Source of the DNA: a phage
Length of the DNA: 64,000 nucleotides
Reading direction: 5' to 3' (one strand)
Sequence record: PZ445551.1
The position numbers and the translations under genes were made by a program. This document shows, one piece after another, positions 3,221 to 62,513 of this stretch. Within the stretch, counting starts at the first letter, position 1. Each line of letters begins with the position of its first letter. The notes beneath the pieces are model-generated. The model ran no database searches and was not told the origin of the DNA. It saw nothing but the letters and a program-made list of their open reading frames with translations.

Positions 3221-3584
3221 AAATATCCTCCCAAATCCAATAATCATCTGTGTAAGTAGGATGCCTTTTATCCCACTCTGTTCTAGCCCAAGCAACCGCT
3301 GCTACCAACACATCACCATGACAAGGTTGAGGTGAGCAGAAGCAAACTAAGTCTTTCCCTTCTAATTCTAACAAATCCTCAAGAGTGATTTTACCACAAC
3401 GAATTTGTTCCCACAACCACTCTTTATATCTTTGTATAGTTGATCCTCGTGGTTCATCATCCTTTAACTTAAAAGGATTTGCAAACTTTGAGGCTTTTAA
3501 CCCCATATGAGGCATAGCTCTGCCAATGTACACTGCACCTTCAGGTATTACTTTACCTAAGTGGTAAAAATTTAATACTTTCAT
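3198..3584 (-). CDS. DUF4326-like protein
   Basis: Motifs VYIGRAMP, ANPF and LVCFCSPQPCHGDVLV resemble DUF4326 as recalled; TAATATG coupling with upstream gene. Confidence 0.6.
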   Translation of the reverse strand: MKVLNFYHLGKVIPEGAVYIGRAMPHMGLKASKFANPFKLKDDEPRGSTIQRYKEWLWEQIRCGKITLEDLLELEGKDLVCFCSPQPCHGDVLVAAVAWARTEWDKRHPTYTDDYWIWEDIYEDYTRN

Positions 3585-3585
3585 A

Positions 3586-3936
3586 TTAACCCAAACACAT
3601 TTGTGCAATCAAGCCCTGTATAAATTTATTAGCTTCTTTACTGTCGTAGTCAGTCTCTTCTGGATATCCATCTTCATCGTACACAACTGTACCTTCAATA
3701 TACCCTGCCTCAATTAAGGCGCGGATCATATCAAATTGCCAGCATGAGTTACCAAATGGACGTTTACCATTAAAACACTCTTCTTCTCTCCATAACGTAG
3801 AGAGTAGTTGTCGGAAATATTCCCGTACAGTGACAGTACCAAGATCTGAATCCTCAAACATAACATCCAGGGCATCAGGATTGCTTTTCTCTACATAAGG
3901 GATATATTTAACACCATTAATAGTTACATCAAGCAT
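3586..3936 (-). CDS. hypothetical protein (116 aa)
   Basis: ORF in same-strand block. Confidence 0.55.
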   Translation of the reverse strand: MLDVTINGVKYIPYVEKSNPDALDVMFEDSDLGTVTVREYFRQLLSTLWREEECFNGKRPFGNSCWQFDMIRALIEAGYIEGTVVYDEDGYPEETDYDSKEANKFIQGLIAQMCLG

Positions 3937-4299
3937 TTATTTCTCCTTATCATCATATTCTAAGAACATATCTGCACGATATGCTTTACGCTCTTCAAAC
4001 TTAGCAGGATCTACAACAATAAGCAATACAAGGTTAACATCTAAATACTTCTTAACAAATAGAAATAAATCTTTTCCACAGTTAAAACCTACACCAGTAT
4101 AGGCATCCCCATATTGATCTACTGATTTAATCTTCTTACTAACCGTACACTCTATGCTATTCTTTTCTTCTTGGTATAAGGCTTTCCCACCCCAATATGT
4201 AAAGAATTTAGTACCGTCAGCACCAAGTTTAAAACCCTCTGTTGCATGTCCCGCAAATGAAAGTAAACATAACCAAGTGATCATCAGGTACTTTAGCAT
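3937..4299 (-). CDS. putative secreted protein or lipoprotein (signal peptide MLKYLMITWLCLLSFAGHA)
   Basis: Hydrophobic N-terminal signal-like segment; start refined to internal ATG adjacent to upstream stop. Confidence 0.5.
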   Translation of the reverse strand: MLKYLMITWLCLLSFAGHATEGFKLGADGTKFFTYWGGKALYQEEKNSIECTVSKKIKSVDQYGDAYTGVGFNCGKDLFLFVKKYLDVNLVLLIVVDPAKFEERKAYRADMFLEYDDKEK

Positions 4300-52006: not shown

Positions 52007-52876
52007 TTATTTTAATTTAAGTAAATACTTACCGTAGTCTGTTTTACTTAAAACCTCTCCAGAACTTTTTACAGAGTCTAAAGTAATCCATTCATTTTTA
52101 AAAGCAATCTCTTCCAGGCATGCAACCTTCATACCTTGTTGCTTCTCTATTGCATGAACAAATTGAGATGCTTCCATAAGACTTTCATGTGTTCCTGTAT
52201 CCAGCCAAGTGAAACCTCTTCCTAGCTTACAGACACGTAAAGCCTTTTCTTTCCAGTACATCTCATTTATATCTGTGATCTCTAACTCCCCTCTAGCAGA
52301 AGGCTTAACGCTTTTAGCTTTCTGTATAACAGAATTATCGTAAAAGTACAAGCCTGTAATTGCATAGTTGCTTTTTGGTGCTTTTGGTTTTTCTTCAATA
52401 CTTACCACTGTACCTTCAGAATCAAACTCAACAACACCAAATCTTTCAGGATCATTTACGTGATACCCAAAAATATTAGCTCCACCATTCTTTTCAATAT
52501 GTTCTTTAGCAGAATCTAAAATGCTACCAAAACTCTGACCAAAGAATAAATTATCACCTAGCACAAGTGCTACAGAATCTTCACCAATAAAGTTCTCACC
52601 AATAATAAACGCTTCTGCTAAACCTTTTGGGCTATCCTGTACTGCATACTGTAGGGAAATACCAAAAGAAGAACCGTCACCTAGAAGATTTACAAAATTA
52701 ATTTGATCTTCTGGTGTTGTAATTATTAGTATTTCCCTAATTCCAGAAAGCATTAGGACAGAGAGTGGATAATAAATCATAGGTTTATCGTAAATTGGTA
52801 ATAGTTGTTTACTAACCCCTTTAGTAACTGGGTAAAGTCTTGTTCCACTACCACCTGCTAAGATAATACCTTTCAT
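52007..52876 (-). CDS. rmlA: glucose-1-phosphate thymidylyltransferase
   Basis: [36 protein letters not shown]. Confidence 0.92.
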
Positions 52877-52884
52877 ACTCCTCC

Positions 52885-53874
52885 TTAAACTTTATTTTCC
52901 CACCACTCTTTGTTATCTACATACCAATCAATGGTTGAATAAAGTTTTTCTTCAAATGTGCCTTTAGCTTTCCACCCTAATTCCTTTTCAATCTTATAAG
53001 GATTCACTTCATATCTTAGATCATGCCCAGGCCTATCTGTAACCATCTCAATGAGGCTACAAGCATCTGTTTCAGATGGATATACCGCATCCATATAATC
53101 ACAAATCATATAGATTACATCAATATTAGTTCTAGGGTTTCTGCTCCCAATATTATATGTTTCTCCAGATTTGCCTTTAGTTACTACTAGGTGTAATGCT
53201 TCTGCGTGATCGTCAACGTATAGCCAGTCTCTTACTTGAAGACCATTACCATAAACAGGGATTGGTTTATTCATTAAGATATTTGTTATCGTCTTAGGTA
53301 TTAGTTTTTCTGGATGATGATATGCTCCAAAATTATTTGAACAATTTGTTATAACTGTCGGAATACCATAAGTACGATGCCACGCTCTTACCAAATGATC
53401 GCTTGCAGCTTTAGATGCAGCATATGGACTACTTGGTTTATAAGGATTCTGTTCTGTAAACGGATAATCCCCTTCTTCCAGATCACCATACACTTCATCT
53501 GTTGAAATATGATGGAACATTTTAAGATTTGATTTATCTCCCATTAAACGAACAGCTTCTAGAAGATTAAATGTCCCAACAATATTTGAATTTATAAAAA
53601 CACTCGGTGATGCTATTGAATTATCTACGTGACTCTCTGCTGCAAGATGCATTATATAATCTGGATTAACATCTGCCACAATCTTAGCAGTTAACTGCGC
53701 ATTTGTCAAGTCAACACGACAAAACTTTACATTAGGTGTTTCTGATAAATTCCTAGGGTCTGAAGCGTAACCCCATTTATCTATAACGTAAATATCATTC
53801 TTAGTATTTTTAGCTAGGAAACGAACTACCGCACTTCCAATAAAGCCTAAACCACCTGTTACTAAGTATTTCAT
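52885..53874 (-). CDS. rmlB: dTDP-glucose 4,6-dehydratase
   Basis: [37 protein letters not shown]. Confidence 0.92.
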
Positions 53875-54747: not shown

Positions 54748-54934
54748 ACTTGGCTACACCATTAACTATAATGTGACCGCAAGACATAACTCCTAGCCAA
54801 TGATCACCATTCTTTTTTAAACGTTTACCGTAAACATCACAGAAACCATTCTGTAATTCGGAAGCCTCATAAGAGGCTCCCTTTTCGAAAACGTCTTTGA
54901 AGTCAGAAATTAATCCAACACAAAGTAGTTTCAT
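54716..54934 (-). CDS. hypothetical protein (72 aa)
   Basis: ORF in same-strand block. Confidence 0.5.
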   Translation of the reverse strand: MKLLCVGLISDFKDVFEKGASYEASELQNGFCDVYGKRLKKNGDHWLGVMSCGHIIVNGVAKFEIIKGEKDD

Positions 54935-56019
54935 TAAAAGTCTAACTCCTCGTCATCACTTACATCTTTATTTGCTGAATTCAGTTTGTAAGCTGTAATT
55001 TGGATCTCCTGTGCTGCTGCTTGAATTTGATCTGGATTTAACCAAACATCCATCCAAGGCAGTGGACTTTTCTTCGGTGCACGGAATTTGTGTTTCATTT
55101 TCAGTCTGCGATAGATAGGCGCAGCATTGAAGTAAACCCAAAGTTTGAACAACTCTGCGTTACCACCAACGATAATCCTTCCTTCACTAAACAGATAGTC
55201 ACACCAATCTTCCTCTTGTCCAACTACCGTGTCAAGAATTTCTGTCAGAACGTCGATATTATCTTCGTATACTTTTCTCCAGACAGGATCTTTCAGCAGT
55301 GCATCAATAATAGCATAATCCATTTTAACGTGCAATAGTTCATCCAACATAATTTTTTGAATGAGTTTAGCTGCACCTACAAACAGTTGCTGCTCTGCTA
55401 AGGCAAATGTTGCAGCAAAAGATGATATGAATTGAATGCCTTCCAGACCGATAAGTGCAATCATTCCTTTCAGAATCAGTAGACGAAGGTTATCATCCTT
55501 CTCAATCAGACCTAGAGCATATTTATGCCCTGCCTCTGCCAGATCACTCATTATCTCTTCAACTATACCCATCCTCTGGAAGATTCTTTCGTTCTCCATA
55601 ATCTGATCGATAACTTCATTTGGATTAGGGATACACTGACGAATAATTTCAGAATATGTCAAAGCGTGTAAAACTTCCATTTCTGATTGCTTCATCATCA
55701 TTGCACATGCTTCGTTGTTGCTTAAAAATGGTGCAAACAAAGTGATGATTGATTTAGCAAGTGAATCATTTTCCCACTGGAAAGATAGGTTTTTGATCAT
55801 AACATCATAGTTGCTTTTAGAACAAGCTACGAAATCTTTTCGTGTCTGATCTAAGTTTACTTCGTTTTCATCCCAGTCTTGCTGTTTTTGTAGTTTGTAC
55901 AGACGATGCATTTCTGGGTATGTTACATTAATAGAATCAAAAATACCTAACTGTTCTCCCAAAAACACAGGGTAGAAACCTTCTTTGTAAGTGTCGTTGT
56001 ATAAGTTAATTGCTGCCAT
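54934..56019 (-). CDS. nrdB: ribonucleotide reductase class Ia beta subunit
   Basis: Length and C-terminal PWMDVWL...DDEELDF align with NrdB; adjacent to nrdA. Confidence 0.85.
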   Translation of the reverse strand: MAAINLYNDTYKEGFYPVFLGEQLGIFDSINVTYPEMHRLYKLQKQQDWDENEVNLDQTRKDFVACSKSNYDVMIKNLSFQWENDSLAKSIITLFAPFLSNNEACAMMMKQSEMEVLHALTYSEIIRQCIPNPNEVIDQIMENERIFQRMGIVEEIMSDLAEAGHKYALGLIEKDDNLRLLILKGMIALIGLEGIQFISSFAATFALAEQQLFVGAAKLIQKIMLDELLHVKMDYAIIDALLKDPVWRKVYEDNIDVLTEILDTVVGQEEDWCDYLFSEGRIIVGGNAELFKLWVYFNAAPIYRRLKMKHKFRAPKKSPLPWMDVWLNPDQIQAAAQEIQITAYKLNSANKDVSDDEELDF

Positions 56020-56027
56020 TTAAAAAT

Positions 56028-56048
56028 TCTCCTCAATAAAAAGGGGCC
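56028..56048 (-). terminator. hairpin + U-tract module upstream of nrdB SD
   Basis: GGGGTTTCGGCCCC then TTTTTTATT, SD GAGGAG on minus strand. Confidence 0.5.
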
Positions 56049-56063
56049 GAAACCCCTTGATGT

Positions 56064-56720
56064 TTAGCCTTGGAACACTGTTTTTGTTTCTGCCAAGTGA
56101 TAGTATAAATCTGCCTTGTTTATAAGAGTGTTGTATACCTCTTGACAAAAATGTTCTTCCTCTTTGTAACGATTCGCTGTTTCCCTGATCGACTTGGCTT
56201 TATCTTTTAACCAAGCGAAGTGTGCCTCTTCCTCTGTAGCGAAATAGCCTAAATGCTTGCTTTTGCTTCCAGAAGTTTTGGCATAAATCTTGCCATCTTT
56301 CCTAATATGCGCTCCGAGTAAGTATTTCCTTTTATGTCTCTTGGCATAACTTAAAAGTGTATTGATATAGGGAGGAACAAACCTACAATATTCAGGACAA
56401 TAGACAGTATTTCCCTCAAGAACAAGATCTTTGTCTAAAACAAAACCTTCGACATTGTGTTCTTGATACCAATTATCAAAATTTGAAAAAGTAAACCAAG
56501 CATCACAGACGGTAACATCTTTATACCCTGGTCTAATATCTTCCATCTTATATGCACGATGAAACATGCCTTTCCAAGCTGCATAGGAAGGGTCTATGAA
56601 TGTGTTAACCCTTTTCCCGTTGACAACGCCACCTTCCCACAATCTACGTTCAACATCCACAATCAAGGGGATTTCTCCCCTCTCTGTGAGAACAGTAACT
56701 TTACGTTTACCCTTCTTCAC
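56064..56720 (-). CDS. putative homing endonuclease (AP2-like DNA-binding segment) between nrdA and nrdB
   Basis: HLGYFATEEEAHFAW AP2-like segment; position matches intergenic homing-endonuclease insertions in T-even nrd loci. Confidence 0.45.
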   Translation of the reverse strand: MKKGKRKVTVLTERGEIPLIVDVERRLWEGGVVNGKRVNTFIDPSYAAWKGMFHRAYKMEDIRPGYKDVTVCDAWFTFSNFDNWYQEHNVEGFVLDKDLVLEGNTVYCPEYCRFVPPYINTLLSYAKRHKRKYLLGAHIRKDGKIYAKTSGSKSKHLGYFATEEEAHFAWLKDKAKSIRETANRYKEEEHFCQEVYNTLINKADLYYHLAETKTVFQG

Positions 56721-56728
56721 CTGTCCTC

Positions 56729-58993
56729 CTACATTTTACAGGCGCTACACCCCTCGTCTTCAGAATCTTCTTGAGCGAGTGAGGATGCCGATTTTGTTCT
56801 GCTATTTAGATAGTACAAAGATTTACCACCAAGTTTTGCAAACTGAAGAATATATTGCATTTCTGATTTAATGGATAAACGACCACCTTCCATCTTAGAG
56901 TAGTCAATCCACTTATCACATGATGCACCTTGATCTAAGAATTTAGTCAACAGGCCATATGCTTCAGCCATATCTTTATCTGGCGTATCCCAAGCCGATT
57001 GGTAAATATCTTTTAGTTTATCGTAATCTGGCACAATAAACAGAACATTACCTTTTTGGCTTTGTTTATAAACTATAGTATCACGTACAGGATACACAGA
57101 GTTAGTCGTATTACTTACAAGACTACTGGACTCATTTGGAGCAATAGCTGCTAATACGCTATTTCGGATACCACCTTGTGCAATGATATCTTGTCGTAAA
57201 CCTTCCCAATCCATTTTAAGTTTAAAATTGCCAATATCGTCTACAGCTTTAGCGTAGGTGTCAATAGGCAACCATCCTTCAGGCCATTTGGTTTTATGCA
57301 TCCATTCTGCATTACCTTTCTCTTTTGCCAAACGAAGAGAAGCTCTTGCTAACCAATAATAATGTCTTTCTGCTAATTCGTGAATTAGTTTTTTGCCGTA
57401 AGGATCTGAATAAGTAACAAAATTACTTGCCAGATAATGTGCAAGGTTTGTAATACCTACACCGATAGACCTACGTGCTTTAGCAGTGATTTCGTTATGT
57501 TTAAACGGATACTGCATTGTTTCAATAACATTATCAATAGTCAGAACGGTATAATATGCAACATCTTCATATTCTTCTGGTGTAACACGACCAGCTACAA
57601 TAGAAGACAGGAAGCATAATGCCAATTCTTGATCTTCTGTATTCTCACCTGTGAAAAGATCAGTCATATTGTGAAATGCTTTCGTAGGTAAGAAAATTTC
57701 TTGGCACAAGTTTGACTGGTAAATAACATCCTTAAACGGAGTATGTTTATTAGCATTATCCGCAAAGAACATATAAATACGTCCTGTCTCTGCTCTTTGT
57801 GTAATAATTTCTGCCAGAAGATCTCGTGCTTTTACAAACTTCTTCTTAATTCGTTTGCGACTAACTTTTTCATATACTTCTTCAAACTCTTCCTCGCTTT
57901 TATAAAGCGCCTCATAGAGTTCTGGTGCTTCGTCATAACTGACTAGCATCCAATCTTTACCTTTTGCTGCACGGCGCAGGAAAGCATTGTTTACTACAAT
58001 AGAGTAATCAAGTTTATCTACTCGTTTTTCACTAACAGTAGTTGGGTTTTTCAAACGTACCAGATCTTCAAAATCAGGTTCTAGTATTGTAAACGTTACT
58101 GTTGCACTTCCACCACGGCTTGCTTGTTTTGATGCTCCAACACTTGTTTCCATCCATTTCAGATATGGTAAAAGACCACCGTGAACGATACGGTTGTTCT
58201 TAACACCTTGTCCTGTAGCACGGGTTTGGAGGTTAACACCAATACCTGCATTATTCAATGTATATTCATGAGCAAGATAGTTAGCAATTGCTAAAGATTC
58301 TGCTGTATCATCTGCTCTAAACAGGCAACAAGAAGCACTACCTTTAATCTTAGTACGCAAAGTTGTTAAATAAGGTGATGGTAAGTTAATCTTAAGATCA
58401 CTTACGTAGGTATATAGACGTTTAATGTCTTCTACTCTGCGATCTTTTGGTTGAATTTCCATTACCTTCATTGCTACACCAATGAATAAAAACTGTGGTG
58501 ATTCAAAAACAACATCATTGATCGCATCTTTCACAAGATACTTATCAACCATCTGGCGCAGTACGGAATAACCATAAGTTAGGTTTTTATCGTGATTGAC
58601 AATTTTACCAATCTCAATAATTTCTTCTTCTGTATAATCCATTTTTCCCCAATAGCCTTTACTTACAGCCATATTGTAGAAATCCAGGAGGGAGGGGATA
58701 TTATGATATCCCCCATGAGCCTGTTTATAAATCATACCAAGAAGTAACCGACCTGCCATATCACTATATGCCTGATCTTTCTTATCAATACATGCTGCTA
58801 TCATAGCTTTATGTAAATCACGAGTAGGCACACCGTCGTAACAACGTTTAACAGCTTCAAGTTCAATTTCAGACCAATTTAATTTACCAGCAGCAAACTC
58901 TGACCATTTACGAAGTTTTTCTGGATTAAATTCTTCTTTCTTGCCGTTTGTTTTTGTTACATAACGGATAGATTTGCTTAGATACTGAGTCAC
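56729..58993 (-). CDS. nrdA: ribonucleotide reductase class Ia alpha subunit
   Basis: 754 aa; SNLCQEI, TGRIYMFF, C-terminal GCSACKM Cys pair; probable GTG start. Confidence 0.93.
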   Translation of the reverse strand: MTQYLSKSIRYVTKTNGKKEEFNPEKLRKWSEFAAGKLNWSEIELEAVKRCYDGVPTRDLHKAMIAACIDKKDQAYSDMAGRLLLGMIYKQAHGGYHNIPSLLDFYNMAVSKGYWGKMDYTEEEIIEIGKIVNHDKNLTYGYSVLRQMVDKYLVKDAINDVVFESPQFLFIGVAMKVMEIQPKDRRVEDIKRLYTYVSDLKINLPSPYLTTLRTKIKGSASCCLFRADDTAESLAIANYLAHEYTLNNAGIGVNLQTRATGQGVKNNRIVHGGLLPYLKWMETSVGASKQASRGGSATVTFTILEPDFEDLVRLKNPTTVSEKRVDKLDYSIVVNNAFLRRAAKGKDWMLVSYDEAPELYEALYKSEEEFEEVYEKVSRKRIKKKFVKARDLLAEIITQRAETGRIYMFFADNANKHTPFKDVIYQSNLCQEIFLPTKAFHNMTDLFTGENTEDQELALCFLSSIVAGRVTPEEYEDVAYYTVLTIDNVIETMQYPFKHNEITAKARRSIGVGITNLAHYLASNFVTYSDPYGKKLIHELAERHYYWLARASLRLAKEKGNAEWMHKTKWPEGWLPIDTYAKAVDDIGNFKLKMDWEGLRQDIIAQGGIRNSVLAAIAPNESSSLVSNTTNSVYPVRDTIVYKQSQKGNVLFIVPDYDKLKDIYQSAWDTPDKDMAEAYGLLTKFLDQGASCDKWIDYSKMEGGRLSIKSEMQYILQFAKLGGKSLYYLNSRTKSASSLAQEDSEDEGCSACKM

Positions 58994-59004
58994 TTCCTCT
59001 CCTA

Positions 59005-59265
59005 TTAATTATGCATATTTAGAACATCTACATCATAACCGCCACGCATCTCGTTATATAAGCCATTTGCGTATAGAAAACCTTCAAAATGATCTATACC
59101 TTCAAAACCTTTTGCCTTTGCTTTGCGGTCTGCTTCTTGTCTTTTTGGAGATAATCTTTTAGATGTATCAAGGATAACTGTTACATTGCAACCTAATGTT
59201 TCATCAAAATAGACTTCAATTTCACAGCCTTCATATTTATTACTTTCTGTCATTTGGCCTCTCAA
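59005..59265 (-). CDS. hypothetical protein (86 aa)
   Basis: ORF in same-strand block. Confidence 0.5.
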   Translation of the reverse strand: MRGQMTESNKYEGCEIEVYFDETLGCNVTVILDTSKRLSPKRQEADRKAKAKGFEGIDHFEGFLYANGLYNEMRGGYDVDVLNMHN

Positions 59266-59676
59266 TTAGAATTCAGAATCATCATCTCGTGATGGATCAT
59301 GTTCATTTCCGAAGTCTTCCATTTTGATATGAGAGCTACCCCAACCTGTAAAATCTTCTTCTCCAAAGTGCAAAATATCCACACCTTGATAGATTCGTTT
59401 ATATTTATAGTCTTGACGAACTGGGAAAGTATACAATGTAGTATTTGCAAACACCACACGTCGATTGTTGTTACTACGAATATTAACACCACGTTCTACT
59501 GTATAATGTCCATCGGTAGACATACCAAGCATTACTAATGCTGCTCGCAATGTAGTGTTATGATACTCGTGAGGAATTTTTCCTCCGTGCTTTTTAGCCA
59601 TTTCTTTCCAGATCGGTGTAGCCTTAATGGTAGACATACTTACGGTCGCCCAAATGGTTGTATTAATTAGTGACAT
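59266..59676 (-). CDS. hypothetical protein (136 aa)
   Basis: ORF in same-strand block. Confidence 0.55.
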   Translation of the reverse strand: MSLINTTIWATVSMSTIKATPIWKEMAKKHGGKIPHEYHNTTLRAALVMLGMSTDGHYTVERGVNIRSNNNRRVVFANTTLYTFPVRQDYKYKRIYQGVDILHFGEEDFTGWGSSHIKMEDFGNEHDPSRDDDSEF

Positions 59677-59773
59677 AAATTCTCCTTCTCTCTTTTAAGG
59701 AGAGCATAGCTCTCCTAACGTTAGCCTATACTACACGAATCTCAATTAAAAGTCAACTATAATTTTAAGTTGA

Positions 59774-60745
59774 TCACCATTTTGTATGGTTAGTCAAAAG
59801 TTGACGATGTTGAATCCAACCACAGAAGTTTCCACTCCACAAACGATGTTTACGATCCATATGTGTAATACCTTCTTCCCAAGAGGAAGGGAACGGAGGA
59901 ATATTAATACCACCTTTCTGTTGTTTTAATCCTGACAAATCCATTTCTTTCATTGGCGTTGCCTGGTGTTCAAACGGAGATGCATGTACCTTTTGTCCAG
60001 ACAGCAAACGAGAATAGATATCCAATGCTTTATCTTTAGTATCATTCAACTTACGATAACTTACCTGAGCGCAACAAGAAGCTGAAATAGCTTTTGCTTC
60101 ATCTTCTGTCAACATTTTCTCGTTGGAGAAGGTTTCACCCAAGAAATAACGGATCATACCAGTTTCTGGATCTCGATCACGATTAACGTAAGGTGTATGC
60201 CACTCCCCTGGGAAAAGAAGATATGGTTCAGAAGATTCATACAGTTTTTTAATTTCTTTAGCAAGAGCCTCAATAGTAGGATCTGCATCAGCATCTACGC
60301 GCAACCACAAGAAGTTTTCTAATTCTGTAGTGGTTACTACAGTCTTCATACGCTGGAATGGTTCTAGTAGTCGGTTTGCAACCTGTTTATGATAACCAGC
60401 AAGGGCAAACTCTTCTGCAAAACGTGCAGCACTTAGTGCAGCCAAGTCCCACCATTCTTTTGCAGTGTAACCTGCATCAATCAGGGCATCGTGATCTGTG
60501 CCTTTATCTTGCATACCTGGTTGGTTAGCACCAAAACGATAAGGACGTGCTGGAGATTGCCGTACCATTTCAATCAGGGTTTTAACAGGGATAGCTCGAC
60601 TTGATGCGGCATTACGAGAAAACAAACGATGCGTCATCAACTCAGAGTGAATGATTCGAGGATATTCAAGTTCAAAGGTAACAATATCCTTACCTTCAGA
60701 TGTTTGAGAGTGTGCAATAATTTTTGCTGAAATAGAATCTGTCAT
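59774..60745 (-). CDS. thyX: ThyX-like (flavin-dependent thymidylate synthase family) protein, divergent
   Basis: IVTFELEYPRIIHSELMTHRLFSRNAASSRA aligns to ThyX core but reads THR where canonical motif is RHR; 323 aa, longer than typical. Confidence 0.6.
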   Translation of the reverse strand: MTDSISAKIIAHSQTSEGKDIVTFELEYPRIIHSELMTHRLFSRNAASSRAIPVKTLIEMVRQSPARPYRFGANQPGMQDKGTDHDALIDAGYTAKEWWDLAALSAARFAEEFALAGYHKQVANRLLEPFQRMKTVVTTTELENFLWLRVDADADPTIEALAKEIKKLYESSEPYLLFPGEWHTPYVNRDRDPETGMIRYFLGETFSNEKMLTEDEAKAISASCCAQVSYRKLNDTKDKALDIYSRLLSGQKVHASPFEHQATPMKEMDLSGLKQQKGGINIPPFPSSWEEGITHMDRKHRLWSGNFCGWIQHRQLLTNHTKW

Positions 60746-60754
60746 TGTTTCTCC

Positions 60755-61345
60755 TTAAGGTAGTAAAATACTTTCAATTTCTTCCCACTGATTATCTAAA
60801 CCAGTGATAATTACATTAGGAAGTTTCTTTAACTCTTCCAAATATGGATCTTCGTAAATAGTGTTGAAATATATTTTCAACGTTTCATCTGGAAACAGGA
60901 CAAGATTTTCAGCCCTATCATCAATAGTTACGTCGCAAGGCAATAAGTATTTTTCTTTTGTTGCGAAAAAACCATTACCAGATGTTCTACTAAAATCCAC
61001 TTTATCTAAAGACCGTGTTACGTGTCTATATTTAGAACTAAGGTGTCCACCCTTAGTGTGGCTTGCTATAGATATATTAGCTCCATTTGCAATTATACGA
61101 TGAACAACATCTGTACTATTAGGTACTACTCCCATAGTATCATATAGATGTTGGTTATCCCAAAAAGAGTAAGGATCAACACCAAATTGCTTTTTAAAAT
61201 CAGGGAAATATTTCGTAATATCATAATGCACAGTTTTATGTGTATTATCAAATTTGATATTAGATCTACTTACCGCATTTAACCAATTTAACCACTCTAT
61301 ATCCGCAGGAGCTATTACTAAATCCCAATCACATACTAGACGCAT
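60755..61345 (-). CDS. putative 5'(3')-deoxyribonucleotidase-like HAD-family protein
   Basis: Start refined to MRLVCDWDLVIAP with SD AGGAG; C-terminal LPCDVTIDDRAENL resembles NT5C-type motif. Confidence 0.45.
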   Translation of the reverse strand: MRLVCDWDLVIAPADIEWLNWLNAVSRSNIKFDNTHKTVHYDITKYFPDFKKQFGVDPYSFWDNQHLYDTMGVVPNSTDVVHRIIANGANISIASHTKGGHLSSKYRHVTRSLDKVDFSRTSGNGFFATKEKYLLPCDVTIDDRAENLVLFPDETLKIYFNTIYEDPYLEELKKLPNVIITGLDNQWEEIESILLP

Positions 61346-61892
61346 TATTTCTCCTGTTATAACATTTTCTACACATTGTTTCGTAAATGTCTTCTCCCCC
61401 AATAACAATCTGTTCTTTAGAGTCGATAAGTCTAGCATTGAAAATAGCTTTTCTTCCACATTTACAAATGCTTTTCAATTCTGTAATTGAATCTGCTATG
61501 GCTAATAACCGTTCAGAACCTTCAAACAATTCTGTAGCAAAATCTGTTTTAAGTCCATAACAGAATACAGGAATATCGTAATTATCTACCACATCTCCAA
61601 GAATGTCAACCATATCTTTAGTTAGGAATTGTGATTCGTCCACAAATACTGCATCTACTGGATTTTCTTTAAGCTGTGTATAAATTTCCAGCATATCTTC
61701 TTTTGTTTTAACTGGTTTTGCTTCCTCTTTAATACCTATCCTAGAAGCAATAGCACTACCAGATCTGGTATCTAAAGCTGAAGTTAAAAGAAGAACTTTC
61801 ATATTTCTTTCTTTATAGTTCCAAGCTGTTTGTAGAAGATGTGTGCTTTTACCACTGTTCATTGGACTATATCGGAAATAAAGTTTAGCCAT
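61329..61892 (-). CDS. tdk: thymidine kinase
   Basis: MAKLYFRYSPMNSGKST, FVDESQFL, CYGLKTDF, CKCGRKA...CRKCY. Confidence 0.93.
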   Translation of the reverse strand: MAKLYFRYSPMNSGKSTHLLQTAWNYKERNMKVLLLTSALDTRSGSAIASRIGIKEEAKPVKTKEDMLEIYTQLKENPVDAVFVDESQFLTKDMVDILGDVVDNYDIPVFCYGLKTDFATELFEGSERLLAIADSITELKSICKCGRKAIFNARLIDSKEQIVIGGEDIYETMCRKCYNRRNNASSM

Positions 61893-61937
61893 ATTTTCTC
61901 CTCTAACGCTCCCATTTGTGGGAGCGATAATACTTTA

Positions 61938-62513
61938 TTATTTCTCTTCGTCAAGAAGAATTTTTACTATCTGTTTTCTTCGCTTATTTACTGTACTTTC
62001 TGGTGAAATTCCGCGCTTCGTTAGCCAATTTTTATCCTTTTTAGACTGGCACAAAGCTATCGCTTCCTTCTCCGCTTTTGCTTCCCTGAATGTCATATCG
62101 TGCTTGTCAGCATAAGCCAGGATAGCGTTACACTGCTTACAAACTACACGCAGGTCGTCTTCTGTTACATACAATAGGCGTAAAACAAAACTTGGGATAT
62201 CTTCATAACAGGTTAATGTACCTGCTGCATTAATATGGTCTACTTGAAAGTCTTTCATACCTCCTGTGTGTCCACACAATTCACATTTACAATTCCAAAC
62301 CTGTTTCGGTTTGCCTGTTTTCTTATCTAAAACTATATTGCCATCTTTATCCAATCTATCGGCTTTAAATCGTACAGATTGGATCTTTTTTATCTTATTC
62401 GGGTGTCTCACCCATGCTTTCCTTAAGCAACCCCTTAAATATGTATAAAAGGCTGCTTGAGTTTTCCAAGGTGTTCCATCTCCCCAAATAACTTTAGGTT
62501 CTTTATTTTCCAA
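61938..62513 (-). CDS. HNH endonuclease
   Basis: CELCGHTGGMKDFQVDHINAAG ... VVCKQCNAI HNH motif. Confidence 0.65.
   Translation of the reverse strand: MENKEPKVIWGDGTPWKTQAAFYTYLRGCLRKAWVRHPNKIKKIQSVRFKADRLDKDGNIVLDKKTGKPKQVWNCKCELCGHTGGMKDFQVDHINAAGTLTCYEDIPSFVLRLLYVTEDDLRVVCKQCNAILAYADKHDMTFREAKAEKEAIALCQSKKDKNWLTKRGISPESTVNKRRKQIVKILLDEEK

Follow-up and report, generated by a model that had tools for sequence, protein, structure and literature searches.

A likely mobile homing-endonuclease-type gene of the IPA-HNH class between nrdA and nrdB, and a fixed HNH-type nuclease gene beside tdk, in a phi92-like phage

Introduction

In phage T4, the space between nrdA and nrdB is occupied by mobE, a free-standing gene for an HNH homing endonuclease that nicks the 5′ region of nrdB (PMC2790892). 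A different group, the IPA-HNH class, was named from the proteins Gp59, Gp115-116 and Gp209 of phage ICP1 (Barth, Dunham & Seed 2023, PMC10448857); its members are too divergent for the Pfam HNH_3 model and carry AP2 domains, and 18% of their genes lie near genes for ribonucleotide reductase (RNR). Here we report on two open reading frames (ORFs) in a 64,000-nucleotide stretch of phage DNA (sequence record PZ445551.1; the whole stretch is called the window below): ORF218, located between nrdA and nrdB, and ORF191, next to the thymidine kinase gene tdk. An original prediction, made from the sequence of the window, had taken both for probable mobile selfish genes. We consider it likely that ORF218 is a selfish, free-standing gene of the IPA-HNH homing-endonuclease type and that ORF191 is a vertically inherited core HNH nuclease, which is not mobile here.

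Two other enzyme types are relevant to the chemistry of such proteins. HNH-AP2 homing endonucleases join an I-HmuI-type HNH_3 domain to an AP2 domain (Magnani et al. 2004, cited in PMC10448857 and PMC5714182). PacI is a His-Me finger nuclease without the catalytic His, in which the metal is held by Asp and Asn and a loop Tyr serves as the base (PMC4081073, PMC5714182).

Natural alleles of the nrdA-nrdB junction

The 8.2-kb stretch around both ORFs is 100% identical to the Escherichia phage VivaForever (PP925843.1) and 98.7% identical to phi92, identities by which the window can be assigned to a phi92-like Justusliebigvirus of the subfamily Stephanstirmvirinae. Both predicted ORFs were found at the coordinates given in Table 1, on the minus strand. 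They are real genes and not chance ORFs; both are annotated in phi92 (ORF218 as gp074, ORF191 as gp081) and are under purifying selection. ORF218 starts with GTG, and its ribosome-binding site (GGAGG) overlaps the stop codon of nrdA.

To survey the junction, artificial empty sites were built by fusing 600 nt from the 3′ region of nrdA to 600 nt from the 5′ region of nrdB. They served as queries against a phage collection, and the gap length was read in each of about 116 related genome records. Eight of the 56 Justusliebigvirus records have ORF218 in the gap (VivaForever, phi92, VEcB, ESCO9, PD114 and UAB_1 among them), and 48 are free of it and have another gene, ORF111, there. The Phapecoctavirus figures refer to 59 usable records of 60 listed, with 71 matched in all. 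Among the matches listed, the gap was empty in about 35 of the 59, held ORF111 alone in eight, ORF218 alone in eight and both genes in five, and in a further two (ZCKP1) held ORF111 with a remnant of ORF218. The presence/absence polymorphism looked for in a homing endonuclease gene is thus seen in the roughly 35 empty and 48 ORF218-free records. In ZCKP1, a frame-shifting deletion of ~503 bp has removed the interior of an ESCO5-type ORF218 and left ~33 nt at its start, ~130 nt at its end and the recoded nrdA tail; this remnant is a degenerate copy of the kind that belongs to an invasion-decay cycle. Homologues of ORF218 from metagenomic relatives (62% and 52% identity) likewise lie between nrdA and nrdB.

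The record of vB_EcoM_01 was left out of the survey, its long gap being a run of N, that is, an assembly gap. This partial genome (PP129558.1) has, at 878-1834 of the compared stretch, the N run together with duplicated nrdA-end and nrdB-start sequence at the junction, and shows that an assembly gap at a polymorphic site is mistakable for an insertion when surveys are based on length.

Alignment of representatives revealed the layout of the empty site, in which the nrdA stop codon is followed by TGAAACT, a GC-rich hairpin with a T-run, the ribosome-binding site and nrdB. ORF218 is inserted on the nrdA side of the hairpin, after the nrdA stop; the hairpin follows the nrdA stop in empty alleles and ORF218 in occupied ones. 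ORF111 has an insertion point of its own on the other side of the hairpin, before nrdB (equivalent to ~56020-56040 of the window). It encodes 111 aa unrelated to ORF218, belongs to phrog_17458 with no function assigned, has no Pfam or NCBIfam match and overlaps the nrdB start with its 3′ end; the copy in JohannJBalmer (Bas62) lies at 1607-1942 of the compared stretch. ORF111 is present in all ORF218-free Justusliebigviruses and absent from most Phapecoctaviruses.

Bas62 and the window are ~99% identical in the compared stretch, except for a variable cassette that contains ORF218 (Table 1). The ORF218 cassette appears to have displaced ORF111 in VivaForever and phi92. The hairpin of VivaForever resembles the Phapecoctavirus version and not that of the ORF218-free Justusliebigviruses; together with the missing ORF111, this suggests that the cassette probably entered Justusliebigvirus from a Phapecoctavirus-like donor, replacing ORF111.

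The cassette also covers the end of nrdA. The NrdA C-terminus reads …EDEGCSACKM in the window, …GCEGCSM in EF1-1 and …GCEACKM in ORF218-free alleles (each directly before the stop), and the recoded tail preserves the C-terminal Cys pair with many bases altered. This recoding of the final ~30 nt was found in every ORF218-bearing allele and in no ORF218-free allele, and one 40-nt nrdA tail, unlike that of all ORF218-free alleles, is common to ORF218-bearing phages of both genera. The recoded end thus provides the linked target variant that co-conversion would leave, and nrdA is the probable target gene of ORF218.

Movement of ORF218 between phage lineages

In the flanking nrdA and nrdB genes, identity is 97-99% within a genus and 78-81% between genera. 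ORF218 follows neither range. Between VEcB (Justusliebigvirus) and AV125 (Phapecoctavirus) it is 97.1% identical, against 80.6% for nrdA and 78.6% for nrdB, and within single genera it falls to 89.5% (VivaForever vs VEcB) and to 82% with flanks at 98% (ESCO5 vs nieznany); EF1-1 and AV125 share 80%. This discordance with the flanks is the phylogenetic incongruence that marks horizontal spread, and it points to at least four allelic lineages of ORF218 whose distribution does not track the phage backbone.

When VivaForever was compared with nieznany in sliding windows, identity climbed from ~74% to ~96% near position 56765, where the alignment with Bas62 also breaks. For the same pair, dS (synonymous divergence) was 0.46 in ORF218, 1.8 in nrdA and 3.2 in nrdB. 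Protein identity between genera is likewise higher for ORF218 (92.7%) than for the essential proteins NrdA (87%) and NrdB (84%). The ratio of nonsynonymous to synonymous divergence (dN/dS) among intact ORF218 alleles was 0.02-0.15, indicating that the protein has been kept functional. In ESCO5 (3501-4160 of the compared stretch), the first ~100 nt of ORF218 and the nrdA tail are identical to those of nieznany and the rest is ~20% diverged, a mosaic that suggests recombination between ORF218 alleles.

Genome comparison shows that ORF218 moves between phage lineages independently of its flanks and always lands between nrdA and nrdB; it carries the variant nrdA tail along, and is kept intact by selection or else decays. 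Site fidelity, sporadic distribution, cross-lineage transfer, a linked target variant, purifying selection and decay make up the pattern of a homing endonuclease gene. The part of the original prediction that concerned mobility stands for this gap, and the predicted recombination hotspot is partly supported by its four intact allelic states and a decayed copy. We found no description of this polymorphism in phi92-like or phAPEC8-like phages in the literature searched. The junction offers, in crossable E. coli phages, an unusually complete natural series of the life cycle of a homing element: the empty site, its invasion, the replacement of a neighbouring gene, the diversification of alleles and their decay.

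The prediction had also pointed to the T-even niche, and ORF218 does occupy the same intergenic place as T4 mobE (PMC2790892), with a nuclease family of its own. Like mobE (and hef), it is free-standing in an essential operon, is accompanied by a terminator hairpin and is co-inherited with flanking nrd sequence. Unlike mobE, it belongs to another nuclease sub-family, and the change linked to it lies at the nrdA 3′ end, whereas MobE nicks nrdB. No T4 match to ORF218 was among the matches listed in our phage searches, in which no direct comparison with MobE was made. The attraction of free-standing endonuclease genes to RNR operons is thus seen beyond T4, in an unrelated phage lineage.

Members of the ORF218 family were also seen at other loci. 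ORF218-free Justusliebigviruses have a 35-39% identical member elsewhere in the genome (PHB05, 97629-98051; PD211, 121403-121825; SD2, 55898-56320), and three members were counted in each of nieznany and EF1-1. From these positions, the family would have several insertion sites in Stephanstirmvirinae. Within the window itself, no paralogue of ORF218 or ORF191 was found.

Protein family and AP2 domain of ORF218

ORF218 matched PHROG 953 and PHROG 374, both labelled 'HNH endonuclease', with E 3e-58 and 7e-44. The single sequence had no match in Pfam and nothing useful in NCBIfam, and single-sequence searches of the PDB gave no match for either ORF218 or ORF191. A profile built from 50 diverse family members matched plant AP2/ERF structures at residues ~133-172 (WRI1, E 1.7e-5; AtERF1, 5e-3; ERF096, 8e-3), and 12 of the 50 members matched Pfam AP2. 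An AlphaFold model of ORF218 (predicted local distance difference test score, 87.7) has three strands and a helix at residues 137-185. The AP2-like segment noted in the original prediction is confirmed as a genuine AP2 domain by the profile matches and the predicted fold.

The family is very large: 38,150 cluster representatives (50% identity) were found at E <= 1e-3. Many members are stand-alone proteins of ~190-260 aa, and others have extra N-terminal zinc-finger modules of the CapR, DUF723 or DUF4379 type. In phage genomes, members were found at 2,537 places in 1,489 records, often in several copies; they are enriched in the Barba phages of Rheinheimera and the KIL-like phages of Pseudomonas, as has been reported for IPA-HNH genes (PMC10448857).

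The top tblastn match of ORF218 in ICP1 was the coding sequence formerly called gp59, and BLASTP gave 34% identity to Gp59 over 164 residues (E 2e-23), with the motif LDKD…GNKVYCPEYC…VP..IN common to both. This homology places ORF218 in the IPA-HNH homing-endonuclease class. With that class it shares, besides the homology to Gp59, the motif in its general form (LDKD…Y(S/C)PE.C…VP..IN), the C-terminal AP2 domain and a free-standing position beside an essential gene. It differs in being minimal, with 218 aa and an N-terminal beta-hairpin module in place of the CapR, DUF723 or DUF4379 zinc fingers of longer members, and in occurring in E. coli phi92-like and phAPEC8-like phages with natural empty, occupied, double and decayed alleles at one site. 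A term search of five supplementary files of PMC10448857 found no occurrence of phi92, phAPEC8, ESCO5 or nieznany. On this evidence, ORF218 would add a phi92-like/phAPEC8-like member to the class known since 2023.

Putative nuclease site and proposed mechanism

The segment preceding the AP2 domain is predicted to form a nuclease-like beta-beta-alpha domain (Table 1). Twelve residues are invariant across the 50 diverse members: R55, Y66, W75, F81, W84, D96, K97, D98, Y107, C112, N120 and G158. In the predicted models, D96 ends strand 94-96, Y107 lies in the next loop, strand 113-115 follows, and N120 is in helix 117-123. The invariant Asp, Tyr and Asn fit the chemistry of PacI, and the local motif Y-S-P-E of the family resembles Y-S-P-Q of PacI, so we infer a PacI-like, His-less active site, the link to PacI being one of fold only in these models.

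From these features a homing mechanism can be proposed, in which we infer nuclease activity, the exact target and the catalytic residues. The AP2 domain, perhaps with the N-terminal beta-hairpins, would bind the nrdA/nrdB junction of a co-infecting relative that lacks ORF218. The His-less beta-beta-alpha-metal domain would then nick or cut close to the nrdA 3′ end, with Asp96/Asp98 and Asn120 holding Mg2+ and Tyr107 acting as general base. Repair of the recipient by recombination with the ORF218-bearing genome would transfer ORF218 together with the recoded nrdA tail next to it.

Canonical HNH_3 (I-HmuI-type) membership of ORF218 was rejected, as the family has no conserved His and no significant profile match. 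ORF218 resembles the HNH-AP2 enzymes in architecture, with a nuclease-like first half and an AP2 domain at the C-terminus, and in residing in phage genomes, and it differs from them in having D-K-D where I-HmuI has D-H-K and in lacking a significant match to the I-HmuI-family profile.

Several observations weigh against a homing nuclease. None of the 50 diverse family members has a conserved His, the position being taken by the invariant D96-K97-D98. An hhalign comparison of the family profile with I-HmuI (1u3e) reached E 0.18, with the register as expected (D96=D74, K97=H75, N120=N96); against a 38-sequence I-HmuI/HNH_3 alignment the profile gave E 0.5 over an unrelated stretch, and the trimmed domain did not match the I-HmuI-family profile at all. 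Scores of the family hidden Markov model against PacI and I-HmuI were equalled by ~7-9% of shuffles. The similarity to PacI (PDB 3m7k / 3ldy) is not significant, and PacI is a homodimeric restriction enzyme without an AP2 domain, whose two Cys4 zinc sites have no counterpart in the ORF218 family, where only C72 and C112 are conserved. No cleavage assay was found for ORF218, or for any IPA-HNH protein in the literature searched. Finally, ORF111 has no nuclease domain and is likewise present or absent at the gap, so that presence/absence alone is no proof of homing.

These points lend some weight to another explanation, which we regard as unlikely: that ORF218 is an AP2 transcription factor with a dead nuclease-like domain. 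It would then modulate the expression of nrdB, or termination at the hairpin, and its spread would be passive, through ordinary homologous recombination in the conserved nrdA and nrdB sequences on either side. The absence of the catalytic His, the lack of a significant sequence match to active HNH enzymes and the variation of the non-nuclease ORF111 at the same gap all agree with it. So do the status of AP2 as the sole confidently assigned domain, the position of ORF218 directly upstream of the terminator-like hairpin and the nrdB ribosome-binding site, and the phi92 annotation of gp074 as a 'potential transcription factor'. However, if the gene were a regulator beneficial to its host phage, one would not expect most relatives to lack it, nor its replacement and decay, nor its repeated passage between genera with a recoded target flank linked to it. 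Across 50 clusters at ~30-40% identity, Asp, Lys, Asp, Tyr and Asn do not vary, and the models place them as in a beta-beta-alpha-metal site, which argues for retained catalysis. The family is also multi-copy, and its genes neighbour those for polymerase, RNR and terminase, as is seen for homing endonuclease genes (PMC10448857).

The possibility that the IPA-HNH family is a clade of PacI-type beta-beta-alpha-metal nucleases using a Tyr general base or lysine-assisted catalysis is put forward tentatively, as a proposal that could well prove wrong. The possible PacI-type chemistry is only moderately supported and is the sole point that goes beyond the literature searched. If true, IPA-HNH proteins would be a major unrecognised mechanistic class of phage homing endonucleases, and the 218-aa ORF218 a tractable E. 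coli model with natural target alleles (phi92, VivaForever, BASEL Bas62, nepoznato, ESCO5 and ZCKP1). With the allele series, DNA cutting by IPA-HNH proteins, and the residues responsible for it, could be tested directly for the first time.

ORF191, a core nuclease gene beside tdk

The HNH endonuclease predicted next to tdk is ORF191, which matched PHROG 1985 ('HNH endonuclease') with E 9e-66 and bears the signature C77-x2-C80, D92-H93, C125-x2-C128-N129. Across 36 family members C77, C80, D92, H93 and N129 are invariant, and C125 and C128 nearly so. This CxxC…DH…CxxCN arrangement and weak but consistent Pfam matches are those of the zinc-knuckle HNH/T4 endonuclease VII type (PF01844, PF14279, PF02945); the matches (HNH in 35 of the 36, HNH_5 in 25, Endonuclease_7 in 10) all stay below the gathering score. 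Also unlike that type, ORF191 has a conserved N-terminal region of ~75 residues (W16, R27, G28, R31, K40, R48) to which no family could be assigned.

For ORF191 the prediction of mobility failed. In all 55 close relatives the gene is contiguous, with 97-99% identity; it occurs at 60-80% identity in 78 further records that cover the Phapecoctavirus set, and is syntenic in phAPEC8; it was found at the same place in all ~127 Stephanstirmvirinae records. Neither presence/absence polymorphism nor an incongruent phylogeny was found among relatives. The comparison of related loci that the original prediction had proposed thus turned out differently for the two genes, with empty-site alleles for ORF218 and none for ORF191, the latter being the pattern it had named as speaking against mobility.

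The most economical reading of these comparisons is that ORF191 would be a core nuclease of the replication and recombination module, probably working for the phage itself, for instance on DNA structures that it would process together with the exonucleases encoded nearby. That it is instead a homing endonuclease gene, fixed in Stephanstirmvirinae or still homing, at the boundary of a homing-endonuclease-gene island with tdk as cargo, seems to us improbable. Such a reading could appeal to Barth et al., who list the ICP1 homologue gp179 as a putative Mob-like HNH homing endonuclease gene, a listing that speaks against a core role, and to Rheinheimera phage homologues annotated 'HNH homing endonuclease'. 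By the gp179 listing, ORF191 may once have been mobile before it became fixed, although in this lineage nothing points to mobility. Yet no empty site was seen in any Justusliebigvirus or Phapecoctavirus record, and the gene is single-copy (765 places in 764 records). Its between-genus identity of 76% aa lies inside the 55-90% of its neighbours, and its dN/dS is ~0.04, with dS saturated. Exonuclease genes recur as its neighbours in three unrelated phage groups, those of the homologues in Pseudomonas PAK_P4 and Vibrio ICP1 included, which suggests a housekeeping partnership.

The genus-specific tdk insertion immediately adjoining ORF191 could also be cited for homing. In phAPEC8, no tdk separates the ORF191 homologue from the NT5C-like gene, which comes directly after it. 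Matches to tdk at >=95% aa were found in 56 records, of Justusliebigvirus only, and the next best came from jumbo phage CBB (54.6%) and T-even phages (~51%). By this distribution tdk is a Justusliebigvirus-specific insertion of ~0.6 kb, absent from Phapecoctavirus; tdk and not ORF191 is the variable element, and the adjacency of the two is incidental. The 3′ end of tdk overlaps the start of the NT5C-like gene.

A role as a terminase-associated HNH protein, assumed for the genus in PMC12210895, is not supported by the position of ORF191 in the replication/nucleotide-metabolism module beside exonuclease genes. The database label 'HNH endonuclease' is widely applied to the IPA-HNH family although it lacks the catalytic His. 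Here, one and the same label covers a likely selfish mobile gene (ORF218) and a probable core phage enzyme (ORF191), and taken alone it is misleading.

Gene order and other observations in the region

Every gene of the region lies on the minus strand. The order is a DnaQ-like exonuclease subunit gene, two small ORFs, ORF191, tdk, the NT5C-like gene, thyX, two small ORFs, nrdA, ORF218 and nrdB. The identities of NrdA, NrdB, ThyX and thymidine kinase were established by strong Pfam and PHROG matches. Coordinates of the features are collected in Table 1.

Table 1. Features of the nrd-tdk region, in coordinates of the window
Feature	Position	Strand	Remarks
ORF218 (phi92 gp074 homologue), free-standing IPA-HNH-class homing-endonuclease-like gene	56064-56720	-	between nrdA and nrdB
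ORF218 AP2 DNA-binding domain, residues ~133-172	56205-56324	-	three strands and a helix (predicted)
ORF218 nuclease-like beta-beta-alpha domain (putative), residues ~42-125	56346-56597	-	strand 94-96, loop, strand 113-115, helix 117-123
Variable cassette, 726 bp	56039-56764	-	378 bp instead in ORF218-free Justusliebigviruses (hairpin and 111-aa ORF, phrog_17458)
Last 12 codons of nrdA, recoded in ORF218-bearing alleles	56729-56764	-	left end of the variable segment
GC-rich terminator-like hairpin followed by a T-run	56041-56058	-	just upstream of the nrdB ribosome-binding site; in all alleles
nrdB, ribonucleotide reductase small subunit	54934-56019	-	Pfam and PHROG matches; downstream flank of ORF218
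nrdA, class Ia ribonucleotide reductase large subunit	56729-58993	-	Pfam and PHROG matches; upstream flank of ORF218
tdk, thymidine kinase	61329-61892	-	between ORF191 and the NT5C-like gene
ORF191 (phi92 gp081 homologue), zinc-knuckle HNH/Endo VII-like nuclease	61938-62513	-	CxxC…DH…CxxCN; single-copy core gene

The gap between thyX and a 136-aa ORF (59677-59773) is empty in the window, with 97 bp. In metagenomic contigs, the same gap holds an HNH_3 protein of 142 aa in one case and a LAGLIDADG protein of 139 aa in another; this suggests another hotspot for insertions within the module, in partial support of the predicted hotspots.

Just downstream of the nrd operon, at 52007-53874 of the window, lie an RmlA-like gene (glucose-1-phosphate thymidylyltransferase) and an RmlB-like gene (dTDP-glucose 4,6-dehydratase), which are conserved in Justusliebigvirus and Phapecoctavirus. 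Finally, five records (MG065639, MG065645, MG065656, MG065689 and MG065650) are labelled 'Campylobacter phage', with Campylobacter jejuni as the stated host. Over the region they are 97.6-98.7% identical to E. coli Justusliebigvirus/Phapecoctavirus genomes, and their host labels look doubtful.

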